64,000 nt of DNA from an uncultured archaeon (GTDB lineage Archaea; Aenigmatarchaeota; Aenigmatarchaeia; GW2011-AR5), in contig CAYJTG010000001.1 in assembly GCA_964373255.1 (NCBI GenBank), positions 82,768 to 146,767 of the forward strand, read 5' to 3'. The first letter of the stretch is position 1. Every line of letters starts with the position of its first letter. A model generated the notes under the pieces. The model was not told the origin of the DNA. It did not search any database and saw nothing but the letters and a program-made list of their open reading frames with translations. Shown here piece after piece: positions 41,881-61,400 of this stretch. The translations under genes and the position numbers were made by a program.

Positions 41881-42054
41881 TTAATGGAATTCAATCCACC
41901 TGCACTGTTTATAGATATACATTGTTTATAGATATAGTTAGCCATATAGATAAAATTAGCGCATGACAAAATTGCCGTAAACATTGCATATTTCTTATCA
42001 GTCACTATCAAGAAATCGAAAGTGCGCATGCTATTTTATCCGCTATTTTCGCAT

Positions 42055-42492
42055 TCACCTGAACTTCAGCGATATTATTTCCTGCGGGCAGTTTGTCGCC
42101 ACGACCTCTATCTTATCGGGCTTTGCCGTGTTGCCTGTGCTGACAACAAAGAACGTAGCCGTTACAGGCGGCAGAGGGTCCGTGACGTTGTAGTCCTTCA
42201 GCGTATAAACCTTGTTTTTCGTCACGTCGCCATACTCGACGGTGGCCTTCAGGTCTGTAAGATTCATATATCCGCTTGTGTTTCTTATCTTTACGCTTAT
42301 TGTACCGTTGTTGAAAGAAAGCGAGCTCAGATCCAGCACTCCGAGGCAGTCTGCAGCTGCCGTGGCCGAAGCGAGCCTCTGGGCGGAAAACGTGTTCGCC
42401 CACGCAGCCATGATGCCTGCTATAACCATGGTGAAGGCGATGAGCAAAACCGTTGCTATGAGCGGTGACACGCCCTTGAAACGCTGCTTCAT
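42055..42492 (-). CDS. Archaeal pilin-like protein (MKQRFKGVSPLIATVLLIAF)
   Basis: Class III signal paralog; start at an internal Met. Confidence 0.55.
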   Translation of the reverse strand: MKQRFKGVSPLIATVLLIAFTMVIAGIMAAWANTFSAQRLASATAAADCLGVLDLSSLSFNNGTISVKIRNTSGYMNLTDLKATVEYGDVTKNKVYTLKDYNVTDPLPPVTATFFVVSTGNTAKPDKIEVVATNCPQEIISLKFR

Positions 42493-42853
42493 GATAAACC
42501 TACCTTTTTCCTGCCTCTTCATTTCTGATGCAATTAATTATGCAAGGGCTATATAAATAATTTTTCGGACGCAGGAGAAACCCATTGCAGCCGATCAATA
42601 AGGCAAAACAAACCGGACTTGCAAAGCGGCCGAATTTCTCGTTGCTTTGCCTATGATTTGTAAACAGAAAGCGAAATCTTTTACTCTATTAATGTGCTAC
42701 AAGATAGGATAGTCAACAATTCATCCGCACGCTGAAGCAATCGGCGTTCTTGTCGATGATAGTAAATGTGATGCACTTATGGTTTGCTAACGCCGCTAAA
42801 CAAAAAATCAAGACAAAAACAAAAAGAGAAACGGTTCAGCTCGCTTCAGGTCT

Positions 42854-43261
42854 TTAGCAGGTCCTGGTGTCTGAAAATGCTGCCGTAGTTACCTTAAGTG
42901 TGCCGCCTGAAGAACAAGATGCAGTTAATGTACAGGTAGCTAGCCCTGATGAATTTATAATTATGCCATCAGTAGCAGGACCGAAGGTACATGTTTTCAG
43001 GGCATTATCTACATAAAACCCTAGTACAGTGCTATTTATGGGTGGGTTTCCGCTGTTTCTTAGGACAACCGTTGTGCCACTTACGCCGTCTATAGTTATT
43101 GCTTGTCGAATATTTTTAGTTAGATCCTCTAGCCCTGTTGACGTTACATTTGCCGCTGCACCGAATAGCTTCTGGAAGAACCCGAAGCTGTAGCCAACTA
43201 TTGCTATAGTGATGATGAGCAACAGGATGGTCGCTATGACAGGCGTTATTCCTTTTTTCAT
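42854..43261 (-). CDS. Archaeal pilin-like protein (MKKGITPVIATILLLIIT)
   Basis: Class III signal paralog. Confidence 0.6.
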   Translation of the reverse strand: MKKGITPVIATILLLIITIAIVGYSFGFFQKLFGAAANVTSTGLEDLTKNIRQAITIDGVSGTTVVLRNSGNPPINSTVLGFYVDNALKTCTFGPATDGIIINSSGLATCTLTASCSSGGTLKVTTAAFSDTRTC

Positions 43262-43339
43262 GAAAATCCCCTAATTACGTTGCCATTAATTGTGTACAGG
43301 TCATATAAATAACTTACTGTAATTTTTCCAAAATTGTAT

Positions 43340-43807
43340 TTATGAGCATTTTGGTGTTCCATCGAATACGTTGGAAATGCCGCCGCAGTTCGTGGTTACA
43401 ATCACTTTCGAGAATGCATTCGGGCAGCTCGCCGAAGAGAAGCTCACATTGCTGAACGTGAGCGTTACTATGTTTCCGCGGTCAAAGTTTGTGACCGGCG
43501 TGTCCGGCGTGCTGAAGTTGCTTCCCGTCTTGTTGAATACCTGGCCGTCCTGGACGACCAGGTCGTCTGTGTAGCCCGAGTTCTTCACTATCGCCCTCAC
43601 GGTCGACGAGCTCGAGGACCCGCTTATGAAGACGTCCTGTATGCTCACAGACGCCGAAGTGCACTCCACGGTCTTGGCGGACGTGTTGGACGTTATCGCC
43701 GTGCTCGACCTAATCGTCGTCGACAGCGACCCGTAAATTATTGTCGCGATTGTCATCGACACTACTATAAGCATGACCGCGGCTATGAGCGGTGATACGC
43801 CTTTCAT
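43340..43807 (-). CDS. Archaeal pilin-like protein (MKGVSPLIAAVMLIVVSM)
   Basis: Class III signal paralog; closest to 40548..41003. Confidence 0.6.
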   Translation of the reverse strand: MKGVSPLIAAVMLIVVSMTIATIIYGSLSTTIRSSTAITSNTSAKTVECTSASVSIQDVFISGSSSSSTVRAIVKNSGYTDDLVVQDGQVFNKTGSNFSTPDTPVTNFDRGNIVTLTFSNVSFSSASCPNAFSKVIVTTNCGGISNVFDGTPKCS

Positions 43808-45522: not shown

Positions 45523-45953
45523 GAACTACCCCACATCCAGAGCTTTATCTTCTTGGTAAAAAACGCGTCCCTGTATCCTGACACGTAATAGTCAACGGTG
45601 ATGATGCTCGTGCCAGACGGCACGTTGCCCGCGCACACGTCCGTGCATACGTCTGTCTCGAGCGATATCGATGACGGCAGAAGCGCCTTCAGCTTCTCCT
45701 CAAGCGTTATTTCATTTCCAGAGAACGCCAGGAACCTCAGCTCGCCCGCCTGATCAAGATACTCCAGCGCCTCAAACCCCTGCTTCTTTATGAGGGCTGT
45801 TTTTGCCGACGCCGGGGCCTGCGTCGAGCTGAAGATAATGACCATCGAGACCATTATTAATGACACAGCTATGATGACCTCAAGCGTAAACAGGTAGCCC
45901 TTGTGATGATTATTTTTTAGTGCATTACCACGTCTGTACCACGATCTTTCCAT
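45519..45953 (-). CDS. Small pilin-like/membrane protein
   Basis: ORF with 4-nt overlap; hydrophobic N-terminal helix after a basic stretch. Confidence 0.4.
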   Translation of the reverse strand: MERSWYRRGNALKNNHHKGYLFTLEVIIAVSLIMVSMVIIFSSTQAPASAKTALIKKQGFEALEYLDQAGELRFLAFSGNEITLEEKLKALLPSSISLETDVCTDVCAGNVPSGTSIITVDYYVSGYRDAFFTKKIKLWMWGSS

Positions 45954-46767
45954 CGATTACCCCTCCTGTTGAGTTCTGAAAGAGTGCATAGCGCTGCACG
46001 CTTACGACATTTTCCGCCCTCGACACCTCTCCGCCGTACTCGAAAAAGACGGTGTTTGGCGAGACCTCTGTGTTGTACAGCGTTATCCTGAAGTCCCTGC
46101 CCTGCAGCGACGGCATTACGGCAGAGTAGTTTGAGCTGTTGAGCGCCTGAAGCTTTTTGTGCTGTACGACTGTCAGCGGATAGGCAGGATAGATTGTCTC
46201 GCCTATAACGTTGCTGCCCGTTATGTTTGTGGACCTGCTTGAGAAGTTGCTGTCGTCGTCGAAATAGAGAATGAAGACCTTAATGGCGTTCGCGCTTATG
46301 TCTCTCCTGAATGTTATAGCGCTGCCGTTTATCTGGTAAGGCACCTCTGTCGAGCCGTCGTAGATCACTGTTGAATTGACATCTATCCCGGAAAATCCCA
46401 TGTCACTATAATTAAAAGACACGAGCTCATTGCTGAGGTCGGTGACGCTCTGGCTCTGGTTGATGAGAAAGGACTGGTTGTTGCTCATGATTATTTCAAG
46501 CCTGTACGACCTGGTCGAAAGCCCGATCCTCTGGACGTCGCCCGTACCGTTCCATCCTGCTGGCGTGAATTCAAAATCCGCGACGCCCAAAAGGCTCAGC
46601 GCGTGCGCCGTGAGCACCTCCGTCTGCGACGTACTCTCCACGGTCGTGAAGAATGCGGTTATCGTCTGGACAACAACCGCAAACACGACTATGAACACGG
46701 CGATGGCTATGATGAAATCTATCTGTATGGCGCCTTTCTTTCTGCTCTGTAGAAAACCTATGATCAT
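45925..46767 (-). CDS. Pilin-like secreted protein (RKKGAIQIDFIIAIAVFIVV class III signal); many NxS/T sequons
   Basis: Start placed at an internal Met, giving an ATGA overlap with the upstream gene stop (46764). Confidence 0.45.
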   Translation of the reverse strand: MIIGFLQSRKKGAIQIDFIIAIAVFIVVFAVVVQTITAFFTTVESTSQTEVLTAHALSLLGVADFEFTPAGWNGTGDVQRIGLSTRSYRLEIIMSNNQSFLINQSQSVTDLSNELVSFNYSDMGFSGIDVNSTVIYDGSTEVPYQINGSAITFRRDISANAIKVFILYFDDDSNFSSRSTNITGSNVIGETIYPAYPLTVVQHKKLQALNSSNYSAVMPSLQGRDFRITLYNTEVSPNTVFFEYGGEVSRAENVVSVQRYALFQNSTGGVIDGKIVVQTW

Positions 46768-47399
46768 ACACTTTTCATCTCGACAGCGTCTGAAGTTGTG
46801 TTGCGCAGGAATGATATCCTCGTCAGTCCGCCTGATGTATGTCCGGAGTACGTCGCGTTGAGCCCTACGACGCACGTGGCGTTGAAATAAAGCCCCGACG
46901 TCTCTAACCTTATGGACGCGTTCTGGAACTTTGCGGTATATTCTGCATCAGCCAGCTTGTCGGGCAGGTTGACATCGAGCGAGCTTCTGGAAGCCGCGGG
47001 CGACCTGTACGAAGACGCGTAGAAAATTTTCTCAACGCCCCCACGCAGTGTAAGGCAAAGCTGGTCGATCTCGCTCTCCGCCGCGAACAGCTGAAAATCT
47101 TCGTGCAGCGATACGAACGTATTCACGATGACGAGTATGAAGAATATTACAAAGCCAAGCAGAAGCGTATGAGTCAGGAGCGTTGCCTGGCCTTTTCTAC
47201 AGAGCTTTGATTCTGTTTTTTTGCCTCTGTTGAAATTCTCAACAAAAGCGTCGACGTGAGAGGCATTGAAACAAACTGACGCACGGAGTGCGTCTATCTG
47301 TTCAGACAATGCCTCTAGCTGACCCATACGTCGATAGACGTATGGGTCTACGTCGACACTTTTGACATAGGTTTTTAACAGAGCTGGTTTTTTCATCAT
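46764..47399 (-). CDS. Pilin-like protein whose N-terminal ~45 codons are encoded by a family-C repeat copy; true start uncertain
   Basis: ATGA coupling to the upstream gene. Class-III-like RKG|QATLLTHTLLLGFVIFFILV segment after the repeat-derived region. Confidence 0.4.
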   Translation of the reverse strand: MMKKPALLKTYVKSVDVDPYVYRRMGQLEALSEQIDALRASVCFNASHVDAFVENFNRGKKTESKLCRKGQATLLTHTLLLGFVIFFILVIVNTFVSLHEDFQLFAAESEIDQLCLTLRGGVEKIFYASSYRSPAASRSSLDVNLPDKLADAEYTAKFQNASIRLETSGLYFNATCVVGLNATYSGHTSGGLTRISFLRNTTSDAVEMKSV

Positions 47400-47983: not shown

Positions 47984-48172
47984 GAGTCATTTATTCATTC
48001 GGAATAATAAATGGTTTTGCTTGTGCATTGAAAGATTGAATTCCATTAAAGTATGATCGTCAGCGTGAGCACCATCGCCTTCCTGGCAATGGTGCTAGCT
48101 GCGGTATACATCAAAAGACGTATATCGCTACGCTGACGATCATCATACGAATATGGAATTCAATCCAAAAAA

Positions 48173-48544
48173 TCACAGTATAACATTCCTTACGGCAAAC
48201 ACGTTGACGATGCGCTTATTTTCGAAATCGTATATAACAATCAGAGAATCCGCTGCGCCCTCAAAAACGACAAGATAATCCCCTGCAGCTGCGCCGCTGT
48301 ACACAACGGGCTGCTCGGCCTTCAGACTTGCCAGCTCTGTCTCATCAAGCAACCTCACGTTCACCGTGGCGTTTTCGAACGGCTTTATTTCAGCGTTCTT
48401 CAAAAGCTCTGTGGTTATAGATTGTTTGATATTTTTGCTGTCCACGCTGCCAGAAGTGCTGTAATTATTAAGTAAGACGGACACGACCAGCGCGGCAATA
48501 ACAATCACAATAACCGCAATGGTAAGCAATTTTCTGTTAAGCAT
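48173..48544 (-). CDS. Small membrane-anchored protein
   Basis: ORF with an N-terminal TM. Confidence 0.4.
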   Translation of the reverse strand: MLNRKLLTIAVIVIVIAALVVSVLLNNYSTSGSVDSKNIKQSITTELLKNAEIKPFENATVNVRLLDETELASLKAEQPVVYSGAAAGDYLVVFEGAADSLIVIYDFENKRIVNVFAVRNVIL

Positions 48545-48607
48545 TCTATAAATTAGAGTAATAAACTTAATAAATACTACGATACAGAGAAATTCAAAAA
48601 TTAGAAT

Positions 48608-48698
48608 AGTATCTCAGAAAGTGAGGTATACGCCTCTTGGCGTATACCTCGGTAGAGGATTACTGCCAACAGGCAGTAATCCAACTTTCGGAGATACT
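48608..48698. repeat. Repeat family A copy 3 (inverted; one mismatch in the terminal inverted repeat)
   Basis: agtatctcagaaagtgaggtatacgcctcttggcgtatacctcggtagaggattactgccaacaggcagtaatccaactttcggagatact. Confidence 0.7.
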
Positions 48699-48777
48699 GT
48701 AGAAAGAATCAAAATTATTTCTACATCTCGACATACCTGCAAAAAGTGTTAAGAGAAAAAGTGCGCTTTCCTTTGCT

Positions 48778-49392
48778 TTACGCTATCGTTCCGTTTGCCG
48801 TCATGTAGCAGCCGGTGTTCTGCTCGAACCATGCGCGGTTGAGCGGCCCGGCAATAACAGGAACAGCGCCGTTGAATATCGCCGGTATGCTTGTAATGTT
48901 CAGTTGTAAGCACAGCGGCAGGCTCTGCCCGCTGCAGTCTACGTATATGCGCGGTGAGAATGCGCCCAATTCCTGCAGCTGCACCTGAGTTGCCGTATCG
49001 TTGGCAAGCCCCAAGATACGCACATTCTTGTCGAACAGGCACTGCACGAATGCGCTCTGGTTCTTGAGAGAAGACTTCTGGCCCTCTATCTCGACAAGCC
49101 TGTCTGTCAGGAATAATCCGTTTTTTGTTACGAATACGTCTGCCAGCGTGTCCCGGCCGGTCGCGTCCTTGACCCTGAGCGTTACCTTGTAAAGCCCGTT
49201 TTCGTCGACAGTCTTTATTACCTCTGCAGGGCTTCCACTCACGATCTCATAGAGCGCCTTTACACTCTCTTCGGCCTTGCTGGCGTCTCCTGTCACCTGC
49301 GCCGGCTTTTGTGTAACAAAGTATCCAATAACAAGAAGAAGGACTATAATAATACCAATATATTTGTAGTTTCCTGTCTTTTCTGCTGCCAT
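48778..49392 (-). CDS. Membrane-anchored extracytoplasmic protein
   Basis: Start placed at MAAEKTGNYKYIGIIIVLLLV; the track ORF extends to 49539. Confidence 0.4.
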   Translation of the reverse strand: MAAEKTGNYKYIGIIIVLLLVIGYFVTQKPAQVTGDASKAEESVKALYEIVSGSPAEVIKTVDENGLYKVTLRVKDATGRDTLADVFVTKNGLFLTDRLVEIEGQKSSLKNQSAFVQCLFDKNVRILGLANDTATQVQLQELGAFSPRIYVDCSGQSLPLCLQLNITSIPAIFNGAVPVIAGPLNRAWFEQNTGCYMTANGTIA

Positions 49393-49651
49393 CTGACCAC
49401 ACTTGACAAATTTTTCTTTTTCTCTACTCTGCACACAAAAGTTTAAATATGTATATATTTTTTGTGGAATGAAATCCTGCAATTTTTCATTCATCCCTGT
49501 AATGCTTTTGTAATTGAATTGTAATTCGTGCCGTCCCAACGAACTTCTCCAGTGCAGCCAGCCTTGCTTTCAATTCCGCATTCTCGGTAAAATTTTATGT
49601 TGCTCAAAATGTAACGAAATGTTTATAAATAGTAAACAATAAGTTTATTGT

Positions 49652-50188
49652 ATGGCAGCACTTTTTCAAAAAGAAATGTATAGGATAATAGAATTTATTT
49701 TGGATAGTACATCAAAGACAACAAAGGTAAGGGAACTGGCAAGGCTGCTGAATCTAAGCCCTGCTCACGTCAGCAGAACTCTGAAAACTCTGGAGAGGCA
49801 CAAAATTATTAAAAATGGTTCTGTGGATTTGTCCAATCCTTACGTGAAGGCATTAAAGATCTTTTTTAATATACAAAAACTGACTGACAGCAATGTTATA
49901 AGGATATTAAAAAAAATAGAACCAGCAGGTGCGGGTATTTATGGCTCGTGGGCGAATGGGACGAATAACGAAACTAGTGATGTTGATATTTGGATTAAAG
50001 TAGAAAAAAAGGCAAACGAAACCAAAATAGCGGTTTTATCGAGTAAGATGAGAAAAGCCCTCCGTAGAAACATACAATTATTGGTGCTCACGCCAGAGAG
50101 GATAGGCAGGCTAAAAAGAGATGACCCGATTTTCTATTATTCGCTCGTCTTTGGCTCTATAAACATTTATGGTGAATCCCTTGAATGA
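49652..50188 (+). CDS. Minimal nucleotidyltransferase (MNT) antitoxin-like protein with N-terminal wHTH
   Basis: GIYGSWANGTNNETSDVDIW (GSx9-13DxD) nucleotidyltransferase motif. Confidence 0.6.
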   Translation: MAALFQKEMYRIIEFILDSTSKTTKVRELARLLNLSPAHVSRTLKTLERHKIIKNGSVDLSNPYVKALKIFFNIQKLTDSNVIRILKKIEPAGAGIYGSWANGTNNETSDVDIWIKVEKKANETKIAVLSSKMRKALRRNIQLLVLTPERIGRLKRDDPIFYYSLVFGSINIYGESLE

Positions 50189-50606
50189 ATTGGAAAAATG
50201 TTTTGAAAAAGGTTTGATAAGAAAAACGCTTCCATCAATAGAAAAGTCGTTGAAGGGTGTTAAGAAAGCTAAAAAATGGCTGGAAGAGGCTAAGAAGAAT
50301 TTTGAATTTGGTCTTTTTGACAGCTGTTTGGTTTCTTCCTATTCCGCTATGTTTCACGTCTCAAGGGCTTTGTTGATGAAGGATGGATTCAGGGAGAAAA
50401 GCCATTACTGTGTTGTAAGATACATTGAAGAAAAATATGTCAATACAAAAAAGCTAAACCATATTATTGTAGATCTATTGGACAGGTTCAGAGAGCTCCG
50501 GCATGAAGACCTCTATGAACTGGACTTCTTTGCAACAAAAGACGACGCAAAAGAAGCGATCAAGAATGCGGAGATCATCATAAAAGAAATAGAAAAGCTT
50601 ATTTGA
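50169..50606 (+). CDS. HEPN-domain protein (toxin partner of MNT)
   Basis: RELRHEDLY (Rx4-6H) HEPN motif; 20-nt overlap with the MNT gene. Confidence 0.6.
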   Translation: MVNPLNELEKCFEKGLIRKTLPSIEKSLKGVKKAKKWLEEAKKNFEFGLFDSCLVSSYSAMFHVSRALLMKDGFREKSHYCVVRYIEEKYVNTKKLNHIIVDLLDRFRELRHEDLYELDFFATKDDAKEAIKNAEIIIKEIEKLI

Positions 50607-50608
50607 AT

Positions 50609-50762
50609 TTTCTTCACTTCCCGCCCAGCACCGCGACATTAATACCAAGCTTCTTCTCAATCGCCGCCAGCCTTGATTTCAGATCACTCATCTCTGACCT
50701 GAGCTCTGTGTTCTCCGCCTTCAGCTTTGCTAGCTCGTCAAGCGCCTGCTTGAAGAAAAAGT
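50609..50762 (-). repeat. Copy A of the giant-gene 3'-end repeat (encodes ...KQALDELAKLKAENTELRSEMSDLKSRLAAIEKKLGINVAVLGGK* with no start codon)
   Basis: About 99% identical over ~115 bp to 52443..52557. Lacks an ATG, and abuts the stop of the DUF2283-like gene. Confidence 0.7.
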
Positions 50763-50984
50763 CTAGAGCTCTTTTACAAGGAATTTCATCTCTGGTATCA
50801 AGTCCTTCTCGTGCTGCACATTAAACTTCTCGAAGCCTATAACTTCACCTGTTTTAATGTCTTTTTTTATAATGAACTCTTCTTCCGTTTCTTCGCATAT
50901 GGCTTTTCTAGGCTTCACAAACCATACGTCCAGCGTGTTGCCCTCTTTGTCAAAAATTACTGTTATTTCGTTTCTTTTTTCCAT
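50763..50984 (-). CDS. DUF2283-like small protein (antitoxin-like partner)
   Basis: ITVIFDKEGNTLDVWF resembles the DUF2283 YDxExDxLYI core; 22-nt overlap with the upstream gene. Confidence 0.45.
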   Translation of the reverse strand: MEKRNEITVIFDKEGNTLDVWFVKPRKAICEETEEEFIIKKDIKTGEVIGFEKFNVQHEKDLIPEMKFLVKEL

Positions 50985-51277
50985 ACGATATCACCTTTCT
51001 TCATCTTGTCCGCCATGTAAGCTGTTATGATAACTCCCGCTCCGTCAAGATGCCTTATAAGTACGCAGACATAATACTTGTACTTCTTATAATAAAGGTA
51101 TACGTTCTTATCCTTTTTGCTTCTGCGCACTTCATCTGGCTCTTTCAGCGTTTCCTTGACTTCCTTTTCGTAGTCGGCCATAATAGGGTGCTTGAATTCT
51201 GATATAAGTGCCCAGCGCATTTCTGTTATTACAACTTTCTTACCCAACACAGAAATGACTTCGAATCTAATCTTCAT
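50963..51277 (-). CDS. DUF4258-like small protein (toxin-like partner)
   Basis: About 100 aa with basic composition; operon with the DUF2283-like gene. Confidence 0.45.
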   Translation of the reverse strand: MKIRFEVISVLGKKVVITEMRWALISEFKHPIMADYEKEVKETLKEPDEVRRSKKDKNVYLYYKKYKYYVCVLIRHLDGAGVIITAYMADKMKKGDIVWKKETK

Positions 51278-51370
51278 TTATTTCTCCTGTATAATCATTT
51301 TACAGATACGTATAAAAAATAGCAGGTACTTCTCAAAATTATGCCGATGACACAATGTATTTTGTTTTCT

Positions 51371-51556
51371 TTACTTCCCGCCCAGCACCGCGGCATTAAT
51401 ACCAACCTTCTTCTCAATCGCCGCCAGCCTTGATTTCATATCACTCATCTCTGACCTGAGCTCTGTGTTCTCAGCCTTCAGCTTTGCTATCTCGTCGAGC
51501 GCCTGCTGGCTATTCGCCGCTGCTGTCTCATTCACCGCATCAATCTTGCTATTCAA
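51371..51556 (-). CDS. 61-aa coiled-coil ORF = copy B of the giant-gene C-terminus (MNSKIDAVNETAAANSQQALDEIAKLKAENTELRSEMSDMKSRLAAIEKKVGINAAVLGGK)
   Basis: The last 45 codons are near-identical to the giant protein's C-terminus. It has its own ATG. Confidence 0.4.
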   Translation of the reverse strand: MNSKIDAVNETAAANSQQALDEIAKLKAENTELRSEMSDMKSRLAAIEKKVGINAAVLGGK

Positions 51557-51858
51557 TTATTTGGTTGCATTGACAGTGGTATTTCTATGCAGAGAATCTA
51601 CTCTGACAATTTTTTATAGTCATTTCTTGCTTTTACAAGTGAATTATTGAAGTCTTTCTTGTTCATTTTTGCCATATCTTCTCTAGCTTTGTGTATTCTT
51701 TTCATTATTTTTGATTCTTTCATTCGAGCACCTCTTCTGGTGTATTTATCATAATTTCCGAATATCCCAATTCTCGGTTTATCTTATTTACGCCTACAAT
51801 AGTTTTCAGTTTCACAAGTTTAAATATATAGATAATTATTGTTATGTGGGTGAAAACT

Positions 51859-52041
51859 ATGAAACCGCTAGAGGAGAAGTTAGATCTGATTGAAAAAGAA
51901 ATCAACGAATTGAAAATTATAGTTATGCGGCAAAATACACCAAAAACTAAGGTTTCTTTAAAAGGGTCTTTGAAAGGCCTTAAAATTGATGAGAACGAGA
52001 TAGAAAAGGTAAAAAAATCGATATTTAAATCTGGTGCATAA
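51859..52041 (+). CDS. Antitoxin-like small coiled-coil protein upstream of the PIN gene
   Basis: Overlaps the PIN gene start by 8 nt. Start at MKPLEEKL (the track gives 51844). Confidence 0.4.
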   Translation: MKPLEEKLDLIEKEINELKIIVMRQNTPKTKVSLKGSLKGLKIDENEIEKVKKSIFKSGA

Positions 52042-52432
52042 AATGATTTATGTTACCGACACGCATTCATTTCTTTGGTACTTATCAGGAGACAAAAGAC
52101 TTGGCAAAGGTGCAAAATCTGTTTTTGACAAAGCTGAGAACGGAGATGCAACTATAGTTATCCCAACCATAGTTCTTGCAGAATCTTTGTACATCCTTGA
52201 AAAAGAAAATGCTATTATGAAATTCAAGGACATCATAAAGAAGGTTGAAATTGGTTGGAACTATACAACAATTTCACTGGACATGCAAATCATTAAAAGA
52301 ATAGAAGACCTTACAAAGCTCTCCGAATTGCACGACAGAATAATAGTGGCATCAGCCGACATTCTGAATGCAGATCTGATAACAAAAGATGAAAACATAA
52401 AGAAAAGTGGTTACGTTAAAACGATCTGGTAA
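52034..52432 (+). CDS. vapC: PIN-domain ribonuclease toxin (VapC-like)
   Basis: Conserved acidic residues (VTDTH, LAES, HDRIIVASAD, TKD) at PIN positions; 132 aa. Confidence 0.65.
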   Translation: MHKMIYVTDTHSFLWYLSGDKRLGKGAKSVFDKAENGDATIVIPTIVLAESLYILEKENAIMKFKDIIKKVEIGWNYTTISLDMQIIKRIEDLTKLSELHDRIIVASADILNADLITKDENIKKSGYVKTIW

Positions 52433-52442
52433 GTCTGTTCTT

Positions 52443-55400
52443 TCACTTCCCGCCCAGCACCGCGACATTAATACCAAGCTTCTTCTCAATCGCCGCCAGC
52501 CTTGACTTCAGATCACTCATCTCTGACCTGAGCTCTGTGTTCTCCGCTTTGAGCTGCTCAACCTGTTGCTGCTGCTGTTGAATCGCGTTGACTAAGACTG
52601 GTGCGAAAAGATCATATTCTAGGCCCCAGAGTGTTCTATTCTCATCAGCCGGTTTATCAACAAGTTCTGGCATAATGGGATAGACATCTTGAGCCACTAA
52701 ACCAATGATTTCCTTGCCGGAGTTTTCCACCACAAGCGTATTGTTATCAAAATGGGAGTTTTGATAGAAATAGCGTTTTGGAGTGAGTTTCAATACTTCA
52801 GCGAGACCATAATTGAGCGGTTGTTGATTGCTCTTTACCCGACTATCGGAAGTACTCCACCATTGCCAAGCCCATCCTTGACCGCTTGCATCAGCTGTAG
52901 TTGGAAGCTCTAAACGATGCGTTGGGCTGGTCATCCCGATGCCGACGTAGCCGCTTGGTGTAATTTCCATCACATTAATGCCATCGGCGTCATTCCTAAT
53001 ATTGAAGTTGCCCACTCGGCCTGATACTCCGCTTCCTAGTGTCCGTACTCTCCATTGCTTACCACCTGAGCCTGTATTTGCAAATTCTATGCCTGTTTCA
53101 ATAGTATTTGCATCAGCAAGTTCAAGGAGCATATCTGGCGCCAGAACCCCGATGCCGACTTTGCCGGTTGTTCCAGTAATTACAATGCCTGCAACCCCTG
53201 CACCTCCCGAATTTGTGCTAAGAAGTATTTTGCCTCCATTTGTTCTGTAAACAATATCTCCGAGAACAGAACCTGTAGCATAAGCATCATTAAAGGTAGG
53301 AAGCGCGATATAACCCCGAACTGTCCCTGATGTTTTCAATACTATTGCTGGATATTGTGTTCCATCAAGAGTAATCCCATCACCTCCTGTGGTGGTGTAA
53401 ACACTGAGTTTAGTGCCTGGGTTTGTAATCCCGATGCCGACGTTGCCTTGGTTAAAATACACGCTTCCGCTGTTCGGGATGGCCCAGCTGTTGCCAGATA
53501 AGTCGGCACCGCGGAAGTAAACAGGCCTTCCTGCGGTACCATCAGTAATGTAGTGCGTTGGAGAGTACAGATAAGTCGTACTGATACTATTCCTAACGTA
53601 GAACCCCCACCCAGCTACCGAACCATCAACCACCAGGCCAGTTACACCATCAACTACCGTACTGCCTCCAATATAGTTGTCGAACCTGGAGGTGCCAACC
53701 ACATGTAACTTCGCCCCAGGCCCCGTCGTCCCGATGCCGACGTTGCCGTTTATGTTGGAAAGAATCGATGTTCTCGAATAAGTAGTTCCAGTATCTGGAA
53801 TGGCAGCGTACTGGGTGAGATCCCCGGTGTTTAATGATACAGACCCATAGTATTGAGCTGTCCATGGAACTCCGCCCAGCCAGCTAGCGCTTGCCTGTGC
53901 CCAAATAGACAGATAATTCGGGCCGAGACCGGTTCCGCTGCGGCGGACTACTTTTACATCTGCGATGGTATACTCGCTGCCCCCAGTTACTTCATGCTCA
54001 ATGTTATAAGTACTTTCTATGTCAGATCCGCCATTCCTGAACTGCACCGAGATCGTCTCTACCGAGTCGCCATGGTTTGGGTTTGTCGGAAATACGCTCC
54101 ATACAACGCCTGCCGCACTGTAAGCCCCATTAACAGTCAGCTCTCCAATCTTGATCCACTTGCCACTGCTGTCGCCGTTCGTATGGAGCCATGTCCAGTG
54201 CCCGCTTTGCATGAGAGTGCCGCTGCTTCCTGCCAGCCGGAATGAGCCTGCAACATCCAATTTACTCCCCGGATTCGTCGTCCCGATGCCGACGTTGCCG
54301 CTGGTTACCATCAACCCTTTCCCATTGACAATCTCAACGTAACTCTTGTCATAACCTGTCCCAACTCCTGTGCCCGCGCCTAGCTGAATTCCTGTATCAA
54401 AGTTTATCCTCAATTGCTGATAGGTATTTGCTGTCCACGCGCCGGACATCCGGTAAATTCCGTAGGCTGCGCTAGGCGTCACCCCTGAGACGTGCCAATA
54501 AATACCATAGGTCCCATCCGTGGCTACCGACCCTCCGCTAGGCTGTAACACAATGCTGTTAAGGTTTGTCCCGATATTCCCACTGACCTCAAGCTTATAG
54601 TTTGGTCCCGTCGTCCCGATGCCGACGTTGCCGCCGTTAAGAATTGTCATTTTTGTAGTCGGACTACTAGCAGCACCAGCAGTTGTTCCAGTTCCTGTGT
54701 CAAAATTGAAAGCTCCATCTACCATTCCAAGAATAACTGATTTATAGACACTATATTTATTTACCCATCCAGCGGCGGTGTATTGAGTATTTCCAGTTAT
54801 ATAACTATCGTAAGCATTTCTAAACAAAACTCCAAAAGCTCCAGCATGCATTTCACTATATGCTGCATTTGTAGCAGAAAAGCTCCCCGCACCAAGTTGA
54901 AGAAGTCCAGCAGGTGCCGTCGTCCCGATGCCGACGTTGCCGGTATTCATAATTCTCATTCTTTCTGTAATTTCATTTCCGCCAGATGCTTTTGTCCCGA
55001 AAAGTAAATCAACACCATAGTTACCAACCTGCTTGCCAACGATAGCTCCGCCAGCATAATTTTCCAGAGCATTGTGAAAGATTAATCCTTTTTTACCAAC
55101 CAAATCACCTATCGCATCATTTAGAGTTCCTAAAGCAGTTACTCTGCCAATATCCAGAGTGAACACAGGACTCGTCGTCCCGATGCCGACGTTGCCGTCA
55201 TTTTGAATCCTCATCCGTTCTCCGGCATTGAAAGTTGTACCAGTGAGGAATCGAATGGATGCTGCTTGCAAATTCTGGATGTTGAATTGATTATTGTCCC
55301 GCTCAGAGAAAACTACCCCCATCTGGTTTCCGCTATTAATCCAACGTATCCCCGAGGTTACTCCTACTCCATTAGCCGCAGATGGGTTGTCCACAACAAT

Positions 55401-58400
55401 CTGTTCAGACCGTCCAGCAACTGAGTTTTCAACCTCGAGTCTATCTACTGGACTCGTCGTCCCGATGCCGACGTTGCCGCTACTTAACACAACAACAGCT
55501 GGTGTCGAAAAGGTTGAACCCCCATTTGCCGTTGATGGAGTTATTTCAAATCCATTGTTGACATTAAATTGTCCACCTATAAGCCAGTTTCTTGTCGCAC
55601 CGTCTGTTTGAACAAATGTAAGTCTTGTATTGCCATCGGTTGTAGCTAATGTCAGTTTCGTAAGCGGACTCGTCGTCCCGATGCCGACGTTGCCTGTTGT
55701 TCTATCTAAATACATTTTCCCATCATCAAAATTAATATTATCATTATCACCTAATCTTAGAATAGAACCGCCACCCGAAGCATAAAGATAAGTATCATTA
55801 TCAATAACGATATTACCTCCCACAACGCTTAACTTTGCCGCCGGACTCGTCGTCCCGATGCCGACGTTGCCGTTGCCTAAAACTGTGAAACTCGTGTCAG
55901 CCGGCGCACCTGCATTGGCAAGAGATAAATAAAATCTTCCAGTCTGAACATTATTACCATTCTGAAGAATACCAAATTCTCCAAGCAAATTTTTCGTTGC
56001 TCCGCCGTCCGTGTAAGAACGGATTGAATATCCTGCGCCATTAGCAGAATTTGCGTGATAAGTTGATATATAACCATCTTGAACTTGTAATTTTGTATTT
56101 GGACTCGTCGTCCCGATGCCGACGTTGCCGTCGCCATTGATTCGAAACGCTGTATTCGGCATTCCAACACCGTAACGCACATTCAATAAAGCAAACCCAT
56201 TTCCAGATGATTCGCTTCCAATATCAACGACAGTGCCGGTGTATGATGCGCTTGAAGCGTACAGCCGTGCAGCCCCTTGACTCGTATCCGAAGTAAAGAC
56301 TTCGAATTTTCTAGCAGGCCCCGTCGTCCCGATGCCGACGTTGCCGCTTGTATCTATTCTCATTCTCTCAGTATTACCGCCAGTACCAAATCGGATAACT
56401 CCACCGGTACCAGCACTTGCTAATAAATTTAATCCGCCAGATGTAGTAGAGTCAGCTTCTAAAGTTACACTATCTTGAACATACAAACCAGATGTCGTAT
56501 AGGCACTTCCAAATGTATATAAATATGCATTAGCGGCATCTGACGCTATTTGTATAGATGCGAACGAATTATTCGTTGTTTTAGATAAATGCAATAATGA
56601 TGCAGGCCCCGTCGTCCCGATGCCGACGTTGCCTGAAGATGTGGCAAGAAGCGTCTGCCCAGAGACGTTGAGAAGGCTTGTCGCGATTGAAGAAGGCGAG
56701 AAGATGCCTGCAAGCAATGTGCCTGTTATGTTAGCGTCGCCCACGACAACCAGCTTCTGATTAGGCGCCGTCGTCCCGATGCCGACGTTGCCTTCACCTA
56801 ATGGGTCGCCAGCTGGGGTGATAGTAAGATAATCACTAGCACCAGCAGTCTGACCCCCTCCTACTTTAAATCGATAACCATCTGAATAGTCTAATCCCAT
56901 ATGCCAACCGACGACATCATTAGAATTCAATGCTACGGTGGCATCACCAGCCATCTTTCTTAATGTCAATATTTCTCCCGGCGCCGTCGTCCCGATGCCG
57001 ACGTTGCCTGAAGAGTCTATCCGCATCCGCTCAGTCAATACCGAAGGTGTAGCAGTGTTAGCAGTAAAAAAGGTCATTAATCCGGGGACACTGTTATCAG
57101 CGATTGTTCCTTCTGTTCTGAATGCTATCCTCGCAGCCAATTTATACCCCGATGTAGCACCTGAATATCCGTATCCATTTATTATTAAAGGATAATCTCC
57201 AGTGGTGATAACCAACGGAACTGCGTTTGTTCCTCTTGATTTGTACGAATCAATCGCCAAACCTTGAACATTATTATCAGCGGCAAACGCCGTAACCATA
57301 GACAGCGTGCTCGGGTCATCCGATGAAAGTGTAAGGCTTCGACCATGTGCAGTGCTTGATAATGTGCCAGTCTGTATATCAAGTTTTGATGTCGGTGTCG
57401 CCGTCCCGATGCCGACTCTTCCTGTATTATTATCGACAAACAAAACGTTGTTGCTCACAGTGAGGTTTCTTGTAACAACCAAGTTCTCAGGAAACGTATA
57501 AGCCGTTGTTCCGCCAAATGTACCGACAGTTATGTTAGCGGCAGGAAGTGATGTAGTCGCTGGCGGTATCGTCGGTGTGTTTGTCAGGTTGGAATAGTCT
57601 AATTTTATCTTGTTATTCAGTGTTGTTCCGTAATCGCCAGTTATGTTTTGTATCGGCAGGCTTGTAGTAGCAGGCGGTATCCCTGTTGTATTGGCATAAG
57701 CGATTGTAAGCTTATTGTTCCATGTCGATAAATCGCCTGTGATGTTTGCAGCAGGGAGCGACAGTCCGTTCAATGCTATCGTGACGGTGTTTCCTGACTT
57801 TGATGTCAGTATCGCGCCCAGCCCTGATATTGTTGTAAGCACCGAAGAGCCGCCAATCAAGACGTCTGTGCCAAAGTACCCGCGCCTCCATGTCCTCGAC
57901 GTGAAGCCTATGTCAAAGGTGTTGTCGAATACAGAAGGCGGCAGTATCGAGCCGTTGACAGAAAGATTATTGACATTCGTGTTCGTGAGGTTGCCCAGCA
58001 GGAATAGGTTCCTGTTTATAATAACGTCATTGTCAAACGTCCACACACCTGTCACTGTTTCTGTTACACCTTTTCTCGGCACGACAGACGTGTCTATTGC
58101 AACATCGTCTGCGTTTATGGTTATCCCTGTGCCCGCACCAACAGTTAATGTGCCCGAGCCGCCCAATGCGATAGACCCGCCACCGCTCAATCCAGAGCCT
58201 GCCGTGACCGTGAGCGATGAATTGACAAGGTCCTGATTAGCTACGCTGCTGTCTGTTAAATTAGCTCCAGACAGTCCGCTCACGCCGCCATACCCAGCGT
58301 CAGCTACGCAAATTGATGAAGAAGTGCCGTCTATTAATGTTACATTCCTTAAAAATTGTCCTACTGCGCATTGTTGTGAGAATCCGCCTGTCACGTTCGC

Positions 58401-61400
58401 TATTGGAATTGTTGATCCGCCTGCTCCCTGGTCAGCCACGCACTGCAAAGTACCATTGGCTGTCGTGCTCAATACTTGCCCTGATGAGCACTTTGTGGCG
58501 TGAAGCACAACGCCAGACGTGAAGTTCTGCAGGGCCGTGAACTTCTGGTTATCCCTGTTCAATAAAGCGGCATTGATGCTTAGCCGTGCATCTGCCAGTA
58601 TTCCGCTTGTTATGTTCGTAGCGTCTAGTGTTATCTTGTTGTTCCAGAATGACAGGTCGCCGGAAATGTTCTGCGCCAATAATGTGATCTTGTTGTTCCA
58701 GAATGACAGATCGCCGGAAATGTTCTGCGCCAATAATGTGATCTTGTTGTTCCAGAATGACAAGTCTCCGCTGATGTTCTGCGCCAGCAGTGTCAGCTTG
58801 TTGTTGCCGTTGCCCCAGACAATTGTCGGGTTCGGGTACGTTCCTGAGAGGTCGCCGCCTGATGACTGCCCCTCATTTATGTACGTCGTGTTGCCGTATC
58901 CGCTGTCAAAAAATACAGTGCCTGATGTTGTTATAGGATTAGGACTCAATATTATTCCCAGACCTTGGCTTATGCTCGTGACCGTGCCATTGCCCTGGCT
59001 GACGATCTGATTATCCACGTAAGTTTTCGTAGCCGCATCGCTTCCCTGCGTAGGCGTGCCAAGGTTGGTTATTCTTTTTGCCCCAAGGTTGATATTTTCC
59101 GAGAACGTCACGTTGCCTATGGTTATATTTGGAATTATGACAGATTTCCCTGTTAGTGTGCTCAGCACCGGCCCGATAGTGCCTTCTATGCTGATGCGCA
59201 GTTCAGACGTCGCCCCTAAATCCTGGCCGACCGCCCTCAGCCCGCGGTTGCCGAAAAGCTCTATGTATATTGCTGACGGCATATAGTTGCCGCCCCAGTT
59301 ATATCTGGGGTCATTCATGTAATTTGTGTCTAATCCGCCCCAGCCAGGATCGCCACCGTATGAAAACTCGATCTGTCTGGTGCGTACAGACTTGTCTACC
59401 GTAAGAACGCCGCCGCGGTCAGCCCCTGTTCTCTGCAGGCGCAGGCCTCCGTATATGGTCTGGTCGCCCACGCCTATTATAGGCGTATCCTGGTATTCGC
59501 TGATCACATTGCCGGAATTCATCTGGACAGCGTCAAAATAGCCAAAGCCTCCGCTTGAAGGGCCAATAGCCTTGAGCTCGATATGAATGACATCGCTCGG
59601 GTTCATCGTTGCCTTTGTCGTGAACTTGCCAGTGATAAGCGCCCAGTTTGTCGAGGTGCTGGACTGCTCTGTGAAACCAGACACGAGCGCTGTGCCTGTT
59701 ACATTTAATCTTACGCTTACCGTCCCGTTCCTCTTTGCCCACACGCCCACGCTGTACGTCTTGTTCGGCTGCAGTTTGTACGCGAGTATGTCCTGCGAGA
59801 TTTTTCCAAGATTGCCGCCGCCCGGGTCGAGCTTTAGCGCGTTGTAGCCTTGAAATACGTCTGTTCCAACAAAATAAGAAGCAGGCGCGTACTGGTAAGC
59901 AGTTCCGCTGTTCTGTATCCAGCCGTCGGCAATAGCAGAAATCTGGTCGCCGCTCCACGACGAGCCGCCGCTGAAGCTCTCGAATCCGCCATTCCTCACT
60001 AGATTGGAGAAATCCTGCTTGATCTTGCCGCCCGAGAACTGGAATTCCTGAGTGTTTGTGTCGAACTGCAGCGTCTGCGCGCTGCTGCCTGAACCGAACG
60101 TGATCGTAGGCGGCGATGCGCCAAGCACGCTCAAAGAGCCGTTCACTTCAACGCTCGCGCCGAATGAGATCGGATATGTCGCGCTTGCGTTGAACACTAT
60201 CGCCTTCTGCCTTGATGTATTTGTTGGCTGCGCCGGGTCGTAGAATGTTATAGCAGGCGAGCTTGCCGCTATCTGAAGCGGCGCGCTGAAAATAAATTTT
60301 CCGTTGCTGCCAAGCGTGGTATCGAATGTTATGTTCTCCCACCCGTCACTTGTTTTTCCAAGAATGATGGTGCCGTTTGACGTTGTTGCCGCAGGCGCAA
60401 GCACGGCATACAACACGCCTGATATGTTTACAGCGCCTATTACTTCAAGTGTGTTCTGCGGGGCTGTCGTCCCAATCCCAACCCGTCCCGTATTATTGTC
60501 AACGAACAGGATATTATTGCTCACGGTGAGATTTCTTGTAACAACAAGGTTTTGAGGAAATGTATAAGCCGTAGTGCCGCCAAAAGTCCCGGCTGTTATA
60601 TTTGCCGCGGGCAGCGTCGAGCCGCCTGCTCCCTGGTCTGATACGCACTGAATTGTTCCGTTTGCCGTTGTCGACAAGACTTGTCCGGCAGAGCACTTCG
60701 ATCCGTGGACAATGACACCTGAAGAAAGATTAGTTGTCCCCACGACCTGGAGCGTGAACAGCGGCGAAGTCGTCCCAACGCCGACGCTGCTTGTCCCATT
60801 GCTCACAAACAGGACGTTGTTGCTCACCGTGAGGTTCCTTCCGATCACGGTATTGCCAGACGCATCAACATTCGTGAATGACTGACTGCCGACATACAAG
60901 GTTCCTGTGACATTGGCATCGCCAGCTACAGTTAATGCTTGCGTCGGGTTAGTCGTTCCTATGCCGATGCGGCTGCTTGATTCATAAATAACAGAATTTC
61001 CCTGCGACGTTGACCCGGTCCATTTTGGTATGTAGTTTGACGAACCGGTTCCTGTAATATTTCCTGTCACAGCCACGCCTCCTACGTAGAGCGCGCCTGT
61101 GATATTTGCGTCGCCCGAGACCGTCAACTCGTGCGTAGGCAATATGCCAATGCCAACCCTCCTGTTCGCCGTGTCAACGATAAGTATCTGCGTGCCTGTG
61201 GAGTTAAAAATCCTAAAAGCACTTGTGGAGTCAGAAGCAGGTGTGAAGTTTGCTGTGCCCACGACCGCAAATGTCTGCTGCGGGCTCAATGTCCCTATTC
61301 CAATCCGGCCTGTATTGTTGTCGACAAAAAGAATATTATTGCTCACAGTGAGGTTTCTTGTAACAATCAAATTCTCTGGGAACGTGTATCCACCAGAGCC

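Follow-up and report, generated by a model that had tools for sequence, protein, structure and literature searches.

Why should the 3' end of a giant fibre gene recur downstream of that gene, with unrelated toxin-antitoxin (TA) cassettes between the copies? This is the question raised by the locus studied here, which we analyzed within a stretch of 64,000 nucleotides from an uncultured archaeon of the Aenigmatarchaeota, referred to as the window. The fibre gene (52443-63170, reverse strand; 49% G+C) appears in the ORF list with a product of 3575 aa, which is predicted to be a secreted or anchored surface fibre. A hydrophobic signal or anchor at the N-terminus is followed by about 23 'GNVGIGTT'-type repeats, and a CBM_4_9 domain (Pfam E 4e-7) and a Peptidase_S74 domain (residues 3441-3504; Pfam E 9.5e-9, 35.9 bits, cut-off 22) were detected. 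The SD.R.K motif, which is invariant across the S74 alignment, is present as 'TSDSRVKSN'. A terminal coiled-coil helix closes the protein after the Peptidase_S74 intramolecular-chaperone motif; in an AlphaFold model of the last 154 aa, whose confidence was low overall, the helix spans residues 102-144 (pLDDT 75-87). It is this C-terminal helix of the chaperone domain that the repeated segment encodes. Archaeal pilin genes adjoin the fibre gene.

The S74 domain above the Pfam cut-off, the motif and the terminal helix liken the protein to the Peptidase_S74/endosialidase-type chaperones of phage tailspikes and fibres, and a distant bacterial S74 protein (L008) shares its '...QLKAEN...L..RL..IE..L' type of end. 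Unlike the phage proteins, it is an archaeal cellular surface protein of 3,575 aa and not part of a phage tail, and its autocleavage is only putative.

A repeat search of the window placed three direct copies, in a common register of 143 nt, at 50608-50750 (copy A), 51365-51507 (copy B) and 52437-52579 (copy C), all on the reverse strand. Over this register, B was 95% and C 87% identical to A. For comparison of their boundaries, the copies were re-registered on their stop codons and positions were counted from the stop. Copy C is the functional end of the 3575-aa reading frame, and the original prediction that this end recurs twice downstream was borne out, with copies 95-99% identical. The homology of A and B covers the 141 nt between -133 and +8, 7 of which differ, whereas that of A and C extends only from about -103 to +3 (52442-52548 in C). 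Within this core, A and C were about 99% identical, as predicted, with one difference at -61, the -103 position being the edge. The additional 30 bp said to be common to A and B (-133 to -104) were also recovered, with matches at 28 of 30 positions compared to 16 of 30 in C. Divergence between A and C leaps from about 1% to 47% across -103 and, because of this jump, the boundary is, as read from the sequence, a recombination breakpoint. The protein upstream of it reads QQQQQQVEQ in C and QQALDELAK in A.

Homology begins abruptly on the 5' side, at -103 in C or -133 in A and B, and runs out no more than 8 nt past the stop codon. Five core changes are private to B, among them three conservative amino-acid changes (L>M, L>V, and V>A) and the conversion of the stop codon from TGA to TAA. 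The peptides encoded by the copies are near-identical, with 0-3 conservative changes. The G+C content of the copies (51-52%) is fibre-like and that of the DNA between them is 29-37%, a contrast that makes the copies islands of fibre-gene sequence in foreign DNA. All copies, including a degenerate remnant (D, below), follow the orientation of the fibre gene, and each adjoins a cassette; the tandem direct repeats are spaced 757-1109 nt apart.

The orphaned copies differ in how much of the gene end they retain. Copy B (51365-51556, reverse strand) has a unique 49-nt extension and contains a 61-aa reading frame, ORF B (51371-51556, TAA stop), which matches the final 61 residues of the fibre in an alignment without gaps; its N-terminal extension, KIDAV..., pairs in the same gap-free way with EYDLF... 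at the end of the fibre S74 region. ORF B was thought to have its own ATG, but it starts with TTG (51556), with a GTG 7 codons later. A search of 1.84 billion representative proteins returned no family for it, only ORF B itself, the fibre and generic coiled coils. Copy A (-133 to +8), which lacks an in-frame start codon, begins 13 nt past the stop codon of a DUF2283-like gene, and its own stop lies 7 nt from that of a HEPN gene. Remnant D (49535-49588, reverse strand), a degenerate fourth S74-type coiled-coil end that reads TENAELKARLAALEKFVG, lies in an AT-rich spacer with the MNT gene start on one side and the next chromosomal gene on the other. The repeat search gave 73-78% identity over 37 nt for D, and tblastn over the whole window found it at E 0.015. 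Its local DNA score of 17 (8.6 +/- 1.2 for shuffled sequence) was reached by none of 2000 shuffles and none of 446 other blocks of the window, and it matches the family motif SRLAALE of a distant S74 protein (P0002). The gap-free alignment of B to the fibre and the S74-end motif in D indicate that both derive from S74 gene ends.

Each of the three TA cassettes is a self-contained module, and their families are unrelated to one another. The VapBC-like pair (51844-52432, forward strand) is convergent with the fibre gene and consists of a called gene for a VapB-like antitoxin of 65 aa (51844-52041) and a PIN toxin (52034/52043-52432; Pfam PIN E 2e-9) whose stop codon lies 10 nt from that of the fibre gene. 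The pair had been predicted and stands with its start corrected to 51844; an archaeal TATA-like element, TTTAAATA, lies about 20 nt 5' of the VapB-like ATG. The second cassette, on the strand of the fibre gene, had been described as a DUF4258/DUF2283-like pair. A pair it is, but no DUF4258 match was found: the 104-aa toxin (50963-51277) has a predicted BECR fold (PBECR-like), with a PBECR2 match under the Pfam cut-off (E 1.5e-4) and a 63%-identical homologue that carries PBECR3, and the match of its 73-aa partner (50763-50984) to DUF2283 is likewise below cut-off (E 0.002). The two genes overlap by 22 nt and have their own AGGAG ribosome-binding site. In Methanophagales and other metagenomes, homologues (63% identical for the toxin and 68% for the partner) overlap in the same two-gene arrangement; the Methanophagales pairs are found either between cas2 and cas1 or next to a Csm6-like gene. 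The occurrence of this two-gene unit in unlike contexts marks it as a mobile module. The third cassette (49652-50606, forward strand) is convergent with the fibre orientation and is the predicted HEPN/MNT pair. It comprises an MNT antitoxin (49652-50188; Pfam Polbeta/NTP_transf_2 and HTH) and a HEPN toxin (50169-50606; Pfam HEPN E 9e-19; Rx5H motif RFRELRH), which overlap by 20 nt and correspond to PADLOC PDC-M05A/B, with an NCBIfam MntA match below cut-off. Two of the three cassettes, VapBC-like and MNT/HEPN, thus lie opposite to the fibre gene. Cassette genes are separated from the repeats by 7-13 nt.

The sequence is a metagenome-assembled contig and the original prediction had raised the possibility that the repeats are an assembly artefact. 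In such an artefact, strain variants with different cassettes would have been concatenated wrongly via a shared repeat. Logan contigs from two runs matched the window at 100% identity: L003 (ERR4904390) over 48677-50642 and L004 (ERR4904392) over 51443-52544, the latter with the same VapBC gene calls. L003 reproduces the junction of the last 35 nt of A with HEPN, L004 links the unique upstream flank of B to the VapBC cassette and, across the PIN junction, to a C-type core, and the MNT/HEPN cassette is matched at 100% identity by L003 and L006. The SNPs that distinguish the copies are at most 62 nt apart, which is under normal read length, and B is further tagged by its extension. Alternative alleles would make bubbles that rejoin a common right flank, rather than re-enter a second, SNP-tagged copy. 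On the other side, the Logan contigs end inside the repeats, and the PBECR-like toxin protein is on record only from the NCBI assembly, unlike the HEPN and PIN proteins. As two per-run assemblies reproduce several junctions exactly, we regard an artefact as very improbable.

The first conserved chromosomal gene beyond the array (48778-49494, reverse strand; called as 238 aa, although its true start is probably later, giving a product of about 200 aa) provided an anchor for comparison with relatives. Upstream of its orthologues (55-62% identity) sit genes for UPF0175, DUF3368, an RHH-like protein and an IS200-type transposase; no coiled-coil remnant precedes the orthologues, though TA-like genes are there. 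No closely related locus was recovered, and the relatives searched offered neither an intermediate state nor an empty site or recombinant junction. Homologous cassettes in other genomes have no long flanking repeats, and two other S74 loci examined have no duplicated gene ends. The arrangement may therefore be a one-off.

The array is most simply read as a set of scars left where recombination captured TA cassettes, one after another, at a conserved gene end, rather than as a new molecular machine, and we judge this explanation, which the original prediction had proposed, to have a somewhat better than even chance of being correct. The G+C contrast, the abrupt boundaries, the autonomy of the cassettes, the TA-like genes at the equivalent position in relatives and the lack of a protein family for ORF B all support it. 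On three or more occasions, AT-rich foreign TA modules would have entered immediately behind the fibre stop codon, each time via homology in the conserved coding segment of about 105-135 nt, and each event would have left one further copy of the gene end. Addition could have occurred by a single (Campbell-type) crossover with a small circular or episomal DNA bearing a related fibre end and a cassette, or by incoming DNA of this kind displacing the resident end, as proposed for orphan Rhs/CdiA modules; we infer both the route and the order of events. Copy C alone would be part of a working gene, with B, A and D as relics in increasing states of truncation or decay. Cassettes would be lost if the direct repeats recombined with one another, and the TA modules should penalize such losses, so it is plausible that addiction maintains the array, which is probably stabilized in this way. 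Several observations weaken the capture explanation. No closely related locus was recovered, and we know of no circular form or donor molecule with a fibre end and a cassette. The near-identity of the A and C cores, with differing flanks, calls for gene conversion or a further unseen step, and B, with its open frame, stop position and only conservative substitutions, could still be used. The tight packing and uniform 3' boundary are more orderly than random illegitimate joins and would also fit a site-specific mechanism.

Under site-specific integration, small elements that carry a copy of the gene end and restore the gene would use the coiled-coil end of the fibre gene as their attachment site, repeated integrations building a tandem array as do elements that target the 3' ends of tRNA genes. 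Every insert is flanked left and right by direct repeats of the target 3' end, with all repeats pointing the same way; this agrees with such a mechanism, as do the uniform boundary at the stop codon and the small, tightly packed cassettes (0.76-1.1 kb), each with its own promoter-like signals. The recombinase could be encoded elsewhere, or have been lost as the elements decayed to addictive TA cores; decayed mobile elements typically leave TA modules as survivors. However, no integrase, transposase or other recombinase was found among ORFs of at least 110 aa in the 64-kb window, the repeats lack hairpin potential (DNA fold z 0 to +0.9) and are absent around homologous cassettes elsewhere, and the homology extents (-103, -133, and at least -186) define no single fixed att boundary. 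Decay of three independent elements to exactly one TA pair each would also be unparsimonious, and we consider this route unlikely. Local segmental duplication, in which unequal crossing-over or slippage multiplied the gene end with its spacer and each spacer of a region that tolerates insertions then received its own TA module independently, is less likely still. It would account for the tandem direct repeats and for the gathering of TA-like genes, free of coiled-coil repeats, at the orthologous site in relatives. Yet the spacers share no similarity in the repeat search of the window save a 30-nt AT-rich promoter-like match, which speaks against a simple tandem duplication; the cassettes sit so close to the repeats that the original spacer is gone, the 5' extents of the copies differ, and the upstream type of A and B, unlike that of C, fits different source alleles better than duplication in place.

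A functional arrangement, to which we give even less credence, would use the copies as swappable 3' ends, ORF B as a free coiled-coil peptide acting on trimerization of the chaperone domain, or antisense RNA from convergent TA operons that read into the repeats and couple fibre and TA expression. ORF B keeps an open frame with conservative changes only and is called by independent gene callers, and the PIN and HEPN genes end 7-10 nt from the repeats, leaving no room for terminators. On the other hand, swapping ends would change almost nothing, since the copies encode nearly the same peptide, and the chaperone domain that contains the segment is removed by cleavage at maturation, after folding, in characterized relatives (PMC12632334). 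These points, together with the opposite strand of two of the three cassettes, the missing start codon of A and the absence of a small-protein family for ORF B, make the predicted C-terminal tip-switching unlikely. The TTG of ORF B has no evident ribosome-binding site or promoter, and the repeats gave no Rfam match and no RNA or DNA structure signal.

The literature searched described no precedent for this exact architecture, which resembles known att-duplication and orphan-module patterns. In att-type arrays, such as those at tRNA genes, direct repeats of the target 3' end flank the inserts, the gene stays intact and older copies lie further away and are more decayed. The direct repeats of the fibre 3' end and the intact fibre gene are alike, but here no integrase was found in or near the inserts among ORFs of at least 110 aa, the inserts are only 0.76-1.1 kb, homology extents differ between copies, and it is a coding segment for a coiled coil in a giant fibre gene that serves as target. 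Orphan modules behind rhs and cdiA are likewise truncated fragments of the main gene, downstream and in the same orientation, each beside a toxin and protector pair. These modules are regarded as displaced ends; most have no start signals, and recombination with the main gene can occur (PMC3967940, PMC3482391), for orphan rhs-CT modules via 522 bp of 95% identity (PMC3967940). Archaea seldom carry classical polymorphic toxin systems (PMC3482391). In contrast to the rhs/cdiA orphans, the fragment here is the extreme gene end, including the stop codon, with no variable toxin domain fused, the toxins are of the free-standing intracellular TA type (PIN, HEPN, and BECR-like) and two of the three pairs lie on the opposite strand, so recombination would leave the exported protein unchanged. 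Short cassettes in an array, with direct repeats of about 100-140 nt between them, are also the layout of sedentary chromosomal integrons; one account describes their TA cassettes as regulating cassette recombination, with their own promoters, some inverted, and as penalizing cassette loss (PMC13108822), and integrons have been reported in Archaea (10.1101/2022.02.06.479319). The present array differs in that a structural gene end marks its start, its repeats are coding and show no attC-like folding, and no integron integrase or attI was found in the window. Reverse transcriptases were not detected in the window, nor was an adenine-specific mismatch pattern seen.

Between the VapB promoter and copy B lies a basic ORF of 41 aa (51598-51723, reverse strand) with no Pfam match. 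It is also called in the Logan contig and carries a GAGGTG Shine-Dalgarno-like motif, and the surrounding 287 nt have a G+C content of 29%.

A repeat search of positions 48000-64000 recovered a three-member family of direct repeats, all on the strand of the fibre gene (52443-63170, minus strand), bearing out the original prediction that the 3' end of this gene recurs in near-identical form. In a common 143-nt register the members are copy A (50608-50750), copy B (51365-51507; 95% identical to A) and copy C (52437-52579; 87%), the last being the fibre gene's own end, and the core of the repeat is GAGAACACAGAGCTCAGGTCAGAGATGAGTGAT. A weaker, four-member family adds a segment at 49536-49572. When the copies were put in register on their stop codons, A and B were homologous from -133 to +8, with seven differences in 141 nt, and the homology of C to A was shorter (about -103 to +3) and contained a single internal difference, at -61. 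Over the adjoining 30 nt, upstream of -103, C differs from A at 14 positions and A from B at two, and the divergence of C from A jumps from about 1% to 47% at -103. Five core changes are private to B; three are conservative replacements (L>M, L>V and V>A) and one turns the stop codon TGA into TAA. The G+C content is 51-52% in the copies, 49% in the fibre gene and 29-37% in the cassettes and spacers.

The 61-aa open reading frame on copy B (ORF B, 51371-51556, minus strand) aligns gap-free to the last 61 residues of the fibre protein and starts with TTG, where an ATG had been assigned. A HMMER scan for its family among 1.84 billion representative proteins returned only ORF B itself, the fibre protein and generic coiled coils. 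The additional member of the weaker family belongs to a degenerate remnant, D (49535-49588, minus strand), which translates to TENAELKARLAALEKFVG and matches the SRLAALE motif. The local DNA alignment score of D was 17; dinucleotide shuffling of the 270-nt spacer, done 2,000 times, gave 8.6 ± 1.2, and the score of D was reached by none of the shuffles and by none of 446 other blocks of the window; tblastn over the whole window gave an E value of 0.015. Since B is gap-free against the fibre terminus and D fits the motif, A, B and D are read here as the ends of Peptidase_S74 (S74) genes cut to different lengths: at least 186 nt in B, 133 nt in A and about 54 nt in D.

The parent gene encodes a 3,575-aa protein with a CBM_4_9 domain and a Peptidase_S74 domain (PF13884) at residues 3441-3504 (E 9.5e-9; 35.9 bits against a cut-off of 22). 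The cleavage-site motif at the start of this domain, a conserved Ser-Asp followed by Arg or Lys, reads TSDSRVKSN in the fibre protein, and its S, D and K are invariant in an alignment with two S74 proteins. Endosialidase-type proteins are known to release the S74 domain by autoproteolysis once the trimer has folded (PMC12632334). The repeated segment corresponds to the final 35-45 residues or so, a heptad-like helix downstream of the S74 motif; a long terminal helix was predicted with a pLDDT of 75-87 within an AlphaFold model that was poor as a whole (pLDDT 53.6). A distant, Bacteroidota-like S74 protein of 692 aa (contig L008) ends similarly, with ...QIEQLKAENTKLQNRLMRIEASL..., as do two small S74 proteins with ...DLQSRLAALEAG and ...LEEKIDELLWLLKKK, and a PDB sequence search with the fibre C-terminus gave non-significant matches only. 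Within the fibre gene (52896-62255), a conserved motif of 29-68 nt that encodes GNVGIGTT-type turns is dispersed in about 23 copies, and two blocks of 54-nt tandem repeats (58572-58859 and 61476-61655) encode NNKITLLAQNISGDLSFW. Both kinds of repeat probably lend themselves to recombination within the gene and to variation in its length.

Three two-gene toxin-antitoxin (TA) cassettes, annotated with Pfam, NCBIfam and PADLOC, lie between and beyond the copies. The first (49652-50606, plus strand) consists of a helix-turn-helix nucleotidyltransferase (MNT) gene and a HEPN gene that overlap by 20 nt. The HEPN toxin (E 9e-19) carries the Rx5H motif RFRELRH, read in the sequence, where the family is defined by Rx4-6H. 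Its partner matches Polbeta (E 3.5e-9) and NTP_transf_2 (E 4e-7) and has a GS...SDVD motif; its match to NCBIfam MntA, at 31 bits, is below the equivalog cut-off of 60. The pair matches the PADLOC candidate system PDC-M05A/B and, as a HEPN gene with Rx4-6H preceded by an overlapping minimal nucleotidyltransferase gene, has the make-up of a predicted type VII TA system. The second cassette (50763-51277, minus strand) consists of 104-aa and 73-aa genes overlapping by 22 nt. The toxin, originally described as DUF4258-like, gave no detectable DUF4258 match and instead matched PBECR2 weakly (22.4 bits, below the cut-off of 27.1); a homologue 63% identical to it carries a weak PBECR3 match. The DUF2283 assignment of the partner was recovered, yet as a weak match below the cut-off (18.7 bits against 23).

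The third cassette (51844-52432, plus strand) has a 65-aa gene directly upstream of a PIN gene (E 2e-9, Pfam), the two separated by 1 nt or overlapping by 8 nt depending on the start chosen. The 65-aa antitoxin-like protein had no match in Pfam, NCBIfam or PADLOC; a PIN gene preceded by a small adjacent or overlapping antitoxin gene is the layout of VapBC, and we regard the pair as VapBC-like on this layout. Between copy B and the VapB promoter is a 41-aa open reading frame that has a good ribosome-binding motif and no family match. Two AT-rich segments of 30 nt, 49436-49465 and 51813-51842, match each other at 83%, and the match includes TTTAAATA; the second segment immediately precedes the VapB start, and the first is near the start of a 238-aa gene (48778-49494, minus strand), the first chromosomal gene beyond the array. 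Both are probably archaeal TATA-box promoters that resemble each other and do not belong to the repeat system.

The 104-aa toxin has its closest homologues (63% identity) in Methanophagales and other metagenomes, where they form an overlapping 105-aa and 74-aa pair whose smaller member is 68% identical to the partner (E 1e-31). In several assemblies the module lies between cas2 and cas1 of a type I CRISPR-Cas locus. Homologous modules were located on Methanophagales and other metagenome contigs (L012, 5640-5957; L013, 6001-6524; L014; L015) and on contig L016 (164-687), where the module adjoins a Csm6/CARF-like gene. No long flanking repeats were found around the Methanophagales module. Because the pair occurs in other contexts without long flanking repeats, its distribution marks it as a portable two-gene module to which the repeats do not belong.

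A misassembly of collapsed or misjoined repeats could produce alternating copies, and the array was compared with contigs assembled independently from single sequencing runs, which were retrieved by exact-protein look-ups. Contig L003 (run ERR4904390) equals window positions 48677-50642 with 100% identity and runs from the downstream chromosomal gene through remnant D, MNT and HEPN into the end of copy A. From run ERR4904392, L004 equals 51443-52544 with 100% identity and physically links the unique upstream flank of B, the 41-aa open reading frame, VapB, PIN and a C-type core; L006 equals 48677-50210 with 100% identity apart from its terminal base. Records of HEPN and PIN come from both the NCBI assembly and Logan, those of the PBECR-like toxin from the NCBI assembly alone, and exact look-ups of the 104-aa toxin, its 73-aa partner and the GTG-start form of PIN returned no contig; the gap in Logan may simply reflect a contig shorter than 800 nt. 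Against an artefact, the sites at which the copies differ are no more than 62 nt apart, and alternative strain alleles would be expected to appear as bubbles and would not give paths leading back into another, SNP-tagged copy of the repeat. We therefore consider an assembly artefact very improbable. L006 stops 22 nt past the MNT stop codon, inside the HEPN gene (50210/50211), with a terminal base that mismatches the window, whereas the contig from ERR4904390 continues to copy A; this end may reflect a population variant in HEPN.

The original prediction proposed serial cassette capture at, or recombination between, duplicated gene ends. The abrupt homology edges and the jump at -103, together with copies that resemble the fibre gene in composition and spacers that are unrelated to one another, show that the fibre-end sequence and the cassettes were in all probability joined by recombination at or near the edges of a conserved segment; to this extent the prediction holds, and its proposal of TA stabilization is a matter of interpretation. 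In one route, a small circular DNA that carries a cassette and a related end would undergo a single crossover with the resident end, and the homologous segment would be duplicated around the insert. Alternatively, incoming DNA composed of an end and a cassette would displace older ends, as has been proposed for orphan rhs-CT modules, which look like fragments that were displaced and which recombine through a 522-bp stretch of 95% identity (PMC3967940). Both routes fit, and neither the route nor the order of events is separable from one genome. That A and C are nearly identical must also reflect either gene conversion or a recent event in which both took part. Direct repeats of this kind could delete the DNA between them, and the TA modules would keep them in place; TA cassettes are described as regulating cassette recombination in chromosomal integrons (PMC13108822), and by analogy the persistence of the deletable repeats is plausibly due to the TA modules.

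Several known systems share features with the array. For an integron, attC-like folding would be expected, and the three copies gave DNA fold z-scores of -0.08 to +0.93 on both strands, with no inverted repeats; Rfam had no match in 49000-53000 at E values up to 1. No integrase, recombinase, transposase or reverse transcriptase domain was detected in window ORFs of at least 110 aa, the window including only 830 nt upstream of the fibre gene, and the integron array was rejected. A diversity-generating retroelement was set aside on the same lack of a reverse transcriptase domain and on the mismatch pattern, which is not adenine-specific: the copies differ by only one to seven changes, adenine occurs in any one copy at only three of six variable core sites, and dozens of shared adenines are unchanged. 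Invertible or shufflon-type switching does not fit copies that are all direct and lack inverted repeats. Switching of the fibre tip, raised originally as a possibility, is unlikely, given that the peptides encoded by the copies are nearly identical, that two of the cassettes point in the opposite direction, that copy A lacks a start codon and that characterized relatives lose the C-terminal chaperone domain by cleavage at maturation (PMC12632334).

The likeness to an Rhs/CdiA orphan array is that B, A and D lie on the fibre strand, each followed by a cassette or gene, but each copy has its own stop codon and the toxins are encoded by genes of their own, two of the three being on the opposite strand. 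With no toxin fused to a repeated fragment, a polymorphic-toxin locus is not supported. An integrative element with a duplicated target 3' end would differ in that the inserts here are only TA pairs and the 41-aa open reading frame, with no integrase. The pattern is recognizable as a blend of orphaned fragments at polymorphic loci, duplicated target ends and TA-stabilized cassette arrays. Literature searches turned up no account of TA cassettes flanked by S74 gene ends, in agreement with the original remark that the architecture is not recognized from described systems, although its parts resemble known phenomena. It is doubtful that the coiled-coil-coding end of this giant gene is a genuine capture site, at which circles of gene end plus TA module integrate and excise by homologous recombination or an unrecognized recombinase; if it were, the locus would amount to a platform that resembles an integron but lacks attC hairpins and an integron integrase, with TA modules guarding against the loss of cassettes. 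If joining by recombination is the right reading, several successive events are preserved in one place, with a conserved module of a hypervariable surface-fibre gene as the landing pad and selfish TA modules as cargo and probably also as the lock of the array. It would connect the modular exchange of S74 ends and TA-stabilized cassette arrays, both well studied, in an uncultivated archaeon. As it stands, this is a single-genome observation known from sequence. It gives a searchable signature: orphaned gene ends with the composition of their parent gene, alternating with AT-rich TA pairs.

Searches for a second example or a close relative of this gene end found none in genomes, metagenomes, viral contigs and two protein collections. 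A scan of genome contigs with the 135-aa fibre C-terminus detected only two distant bacterial loci, and the repeat alignment, scanned against metagenomes, matched nothing but a single distant S74 end and a spurious coiled coil. In scans of viral contigs, neither the repeat, queried as DNA and as peptide, nor the PBECR toxin nor MNT had a match. A word-index homologue search of the fibre C-terminus returned two distant S74 proteins, and no duplicated ends were found at two other S74 genes. Orthologues of the 238-aa gene (55-62% identity) are preceded in related archaea by fragments and pairs of other TA-like genes, namely a UPF0175 fragment, a PIN C-terminal fragment, an RHH-like gene with a small membrane protein, and DUF3368, and by an IS200-type Y1 transposase (contig L010, 1-2200, and the contig of protein P0004). 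No coiled-coil remnant was found beside these genes. Their presence suggests that the position beyond the array collects TA-like modules in this lineage and may be a lineage-wide insertion hotspot. The orthologue in GCA_964372825.1 was rejected for comparison because it lies at a contig end beside ribosomal protein genes and is not syntenic.

The gene content of the window (GatA/B/C, AspRS, FtsZ, HerA-like ATPases, a subtilase, and rhomboid and M50 proteases) is chromosomal and archaeal. Archaeal type IV pilin-like genes (Pilin_N, DUF7287) occur at 40548-43807 and 45925-46875, a few kilobases from the fibre gene, and with this cluster nearby the whole 40-63-kb stretch looks like a region for cell-surface structures. 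A sharply bounded element of about 93 nt is present in three almost identical copies, at 48607-48702 (plus strand), 22420-22514 (minus strand) and about 39330-39420 (minus strand). It folds as a Y, with a 15-17-bp closing stem and two perfect 11-12-bp hairpins (RNA folding energy -58 to -67 kcal/mol; z-scores -12 to -14), has no Rfam family and could be either a small structured RNA or a repeat of the MITE type. The 48.6-kb copy lies about 75 nt past the stop codon of the gene beyond the TA array, and contigs L003 and L006 both break inside it. A 59-nt Rfam tRNA match at 24148-24206 (minus strand; 35.2 bits, above the gathering score), where ARAGORN reported none, may represent a fragment of a tRNA or else an archaeal tRNA that is atypical or split.
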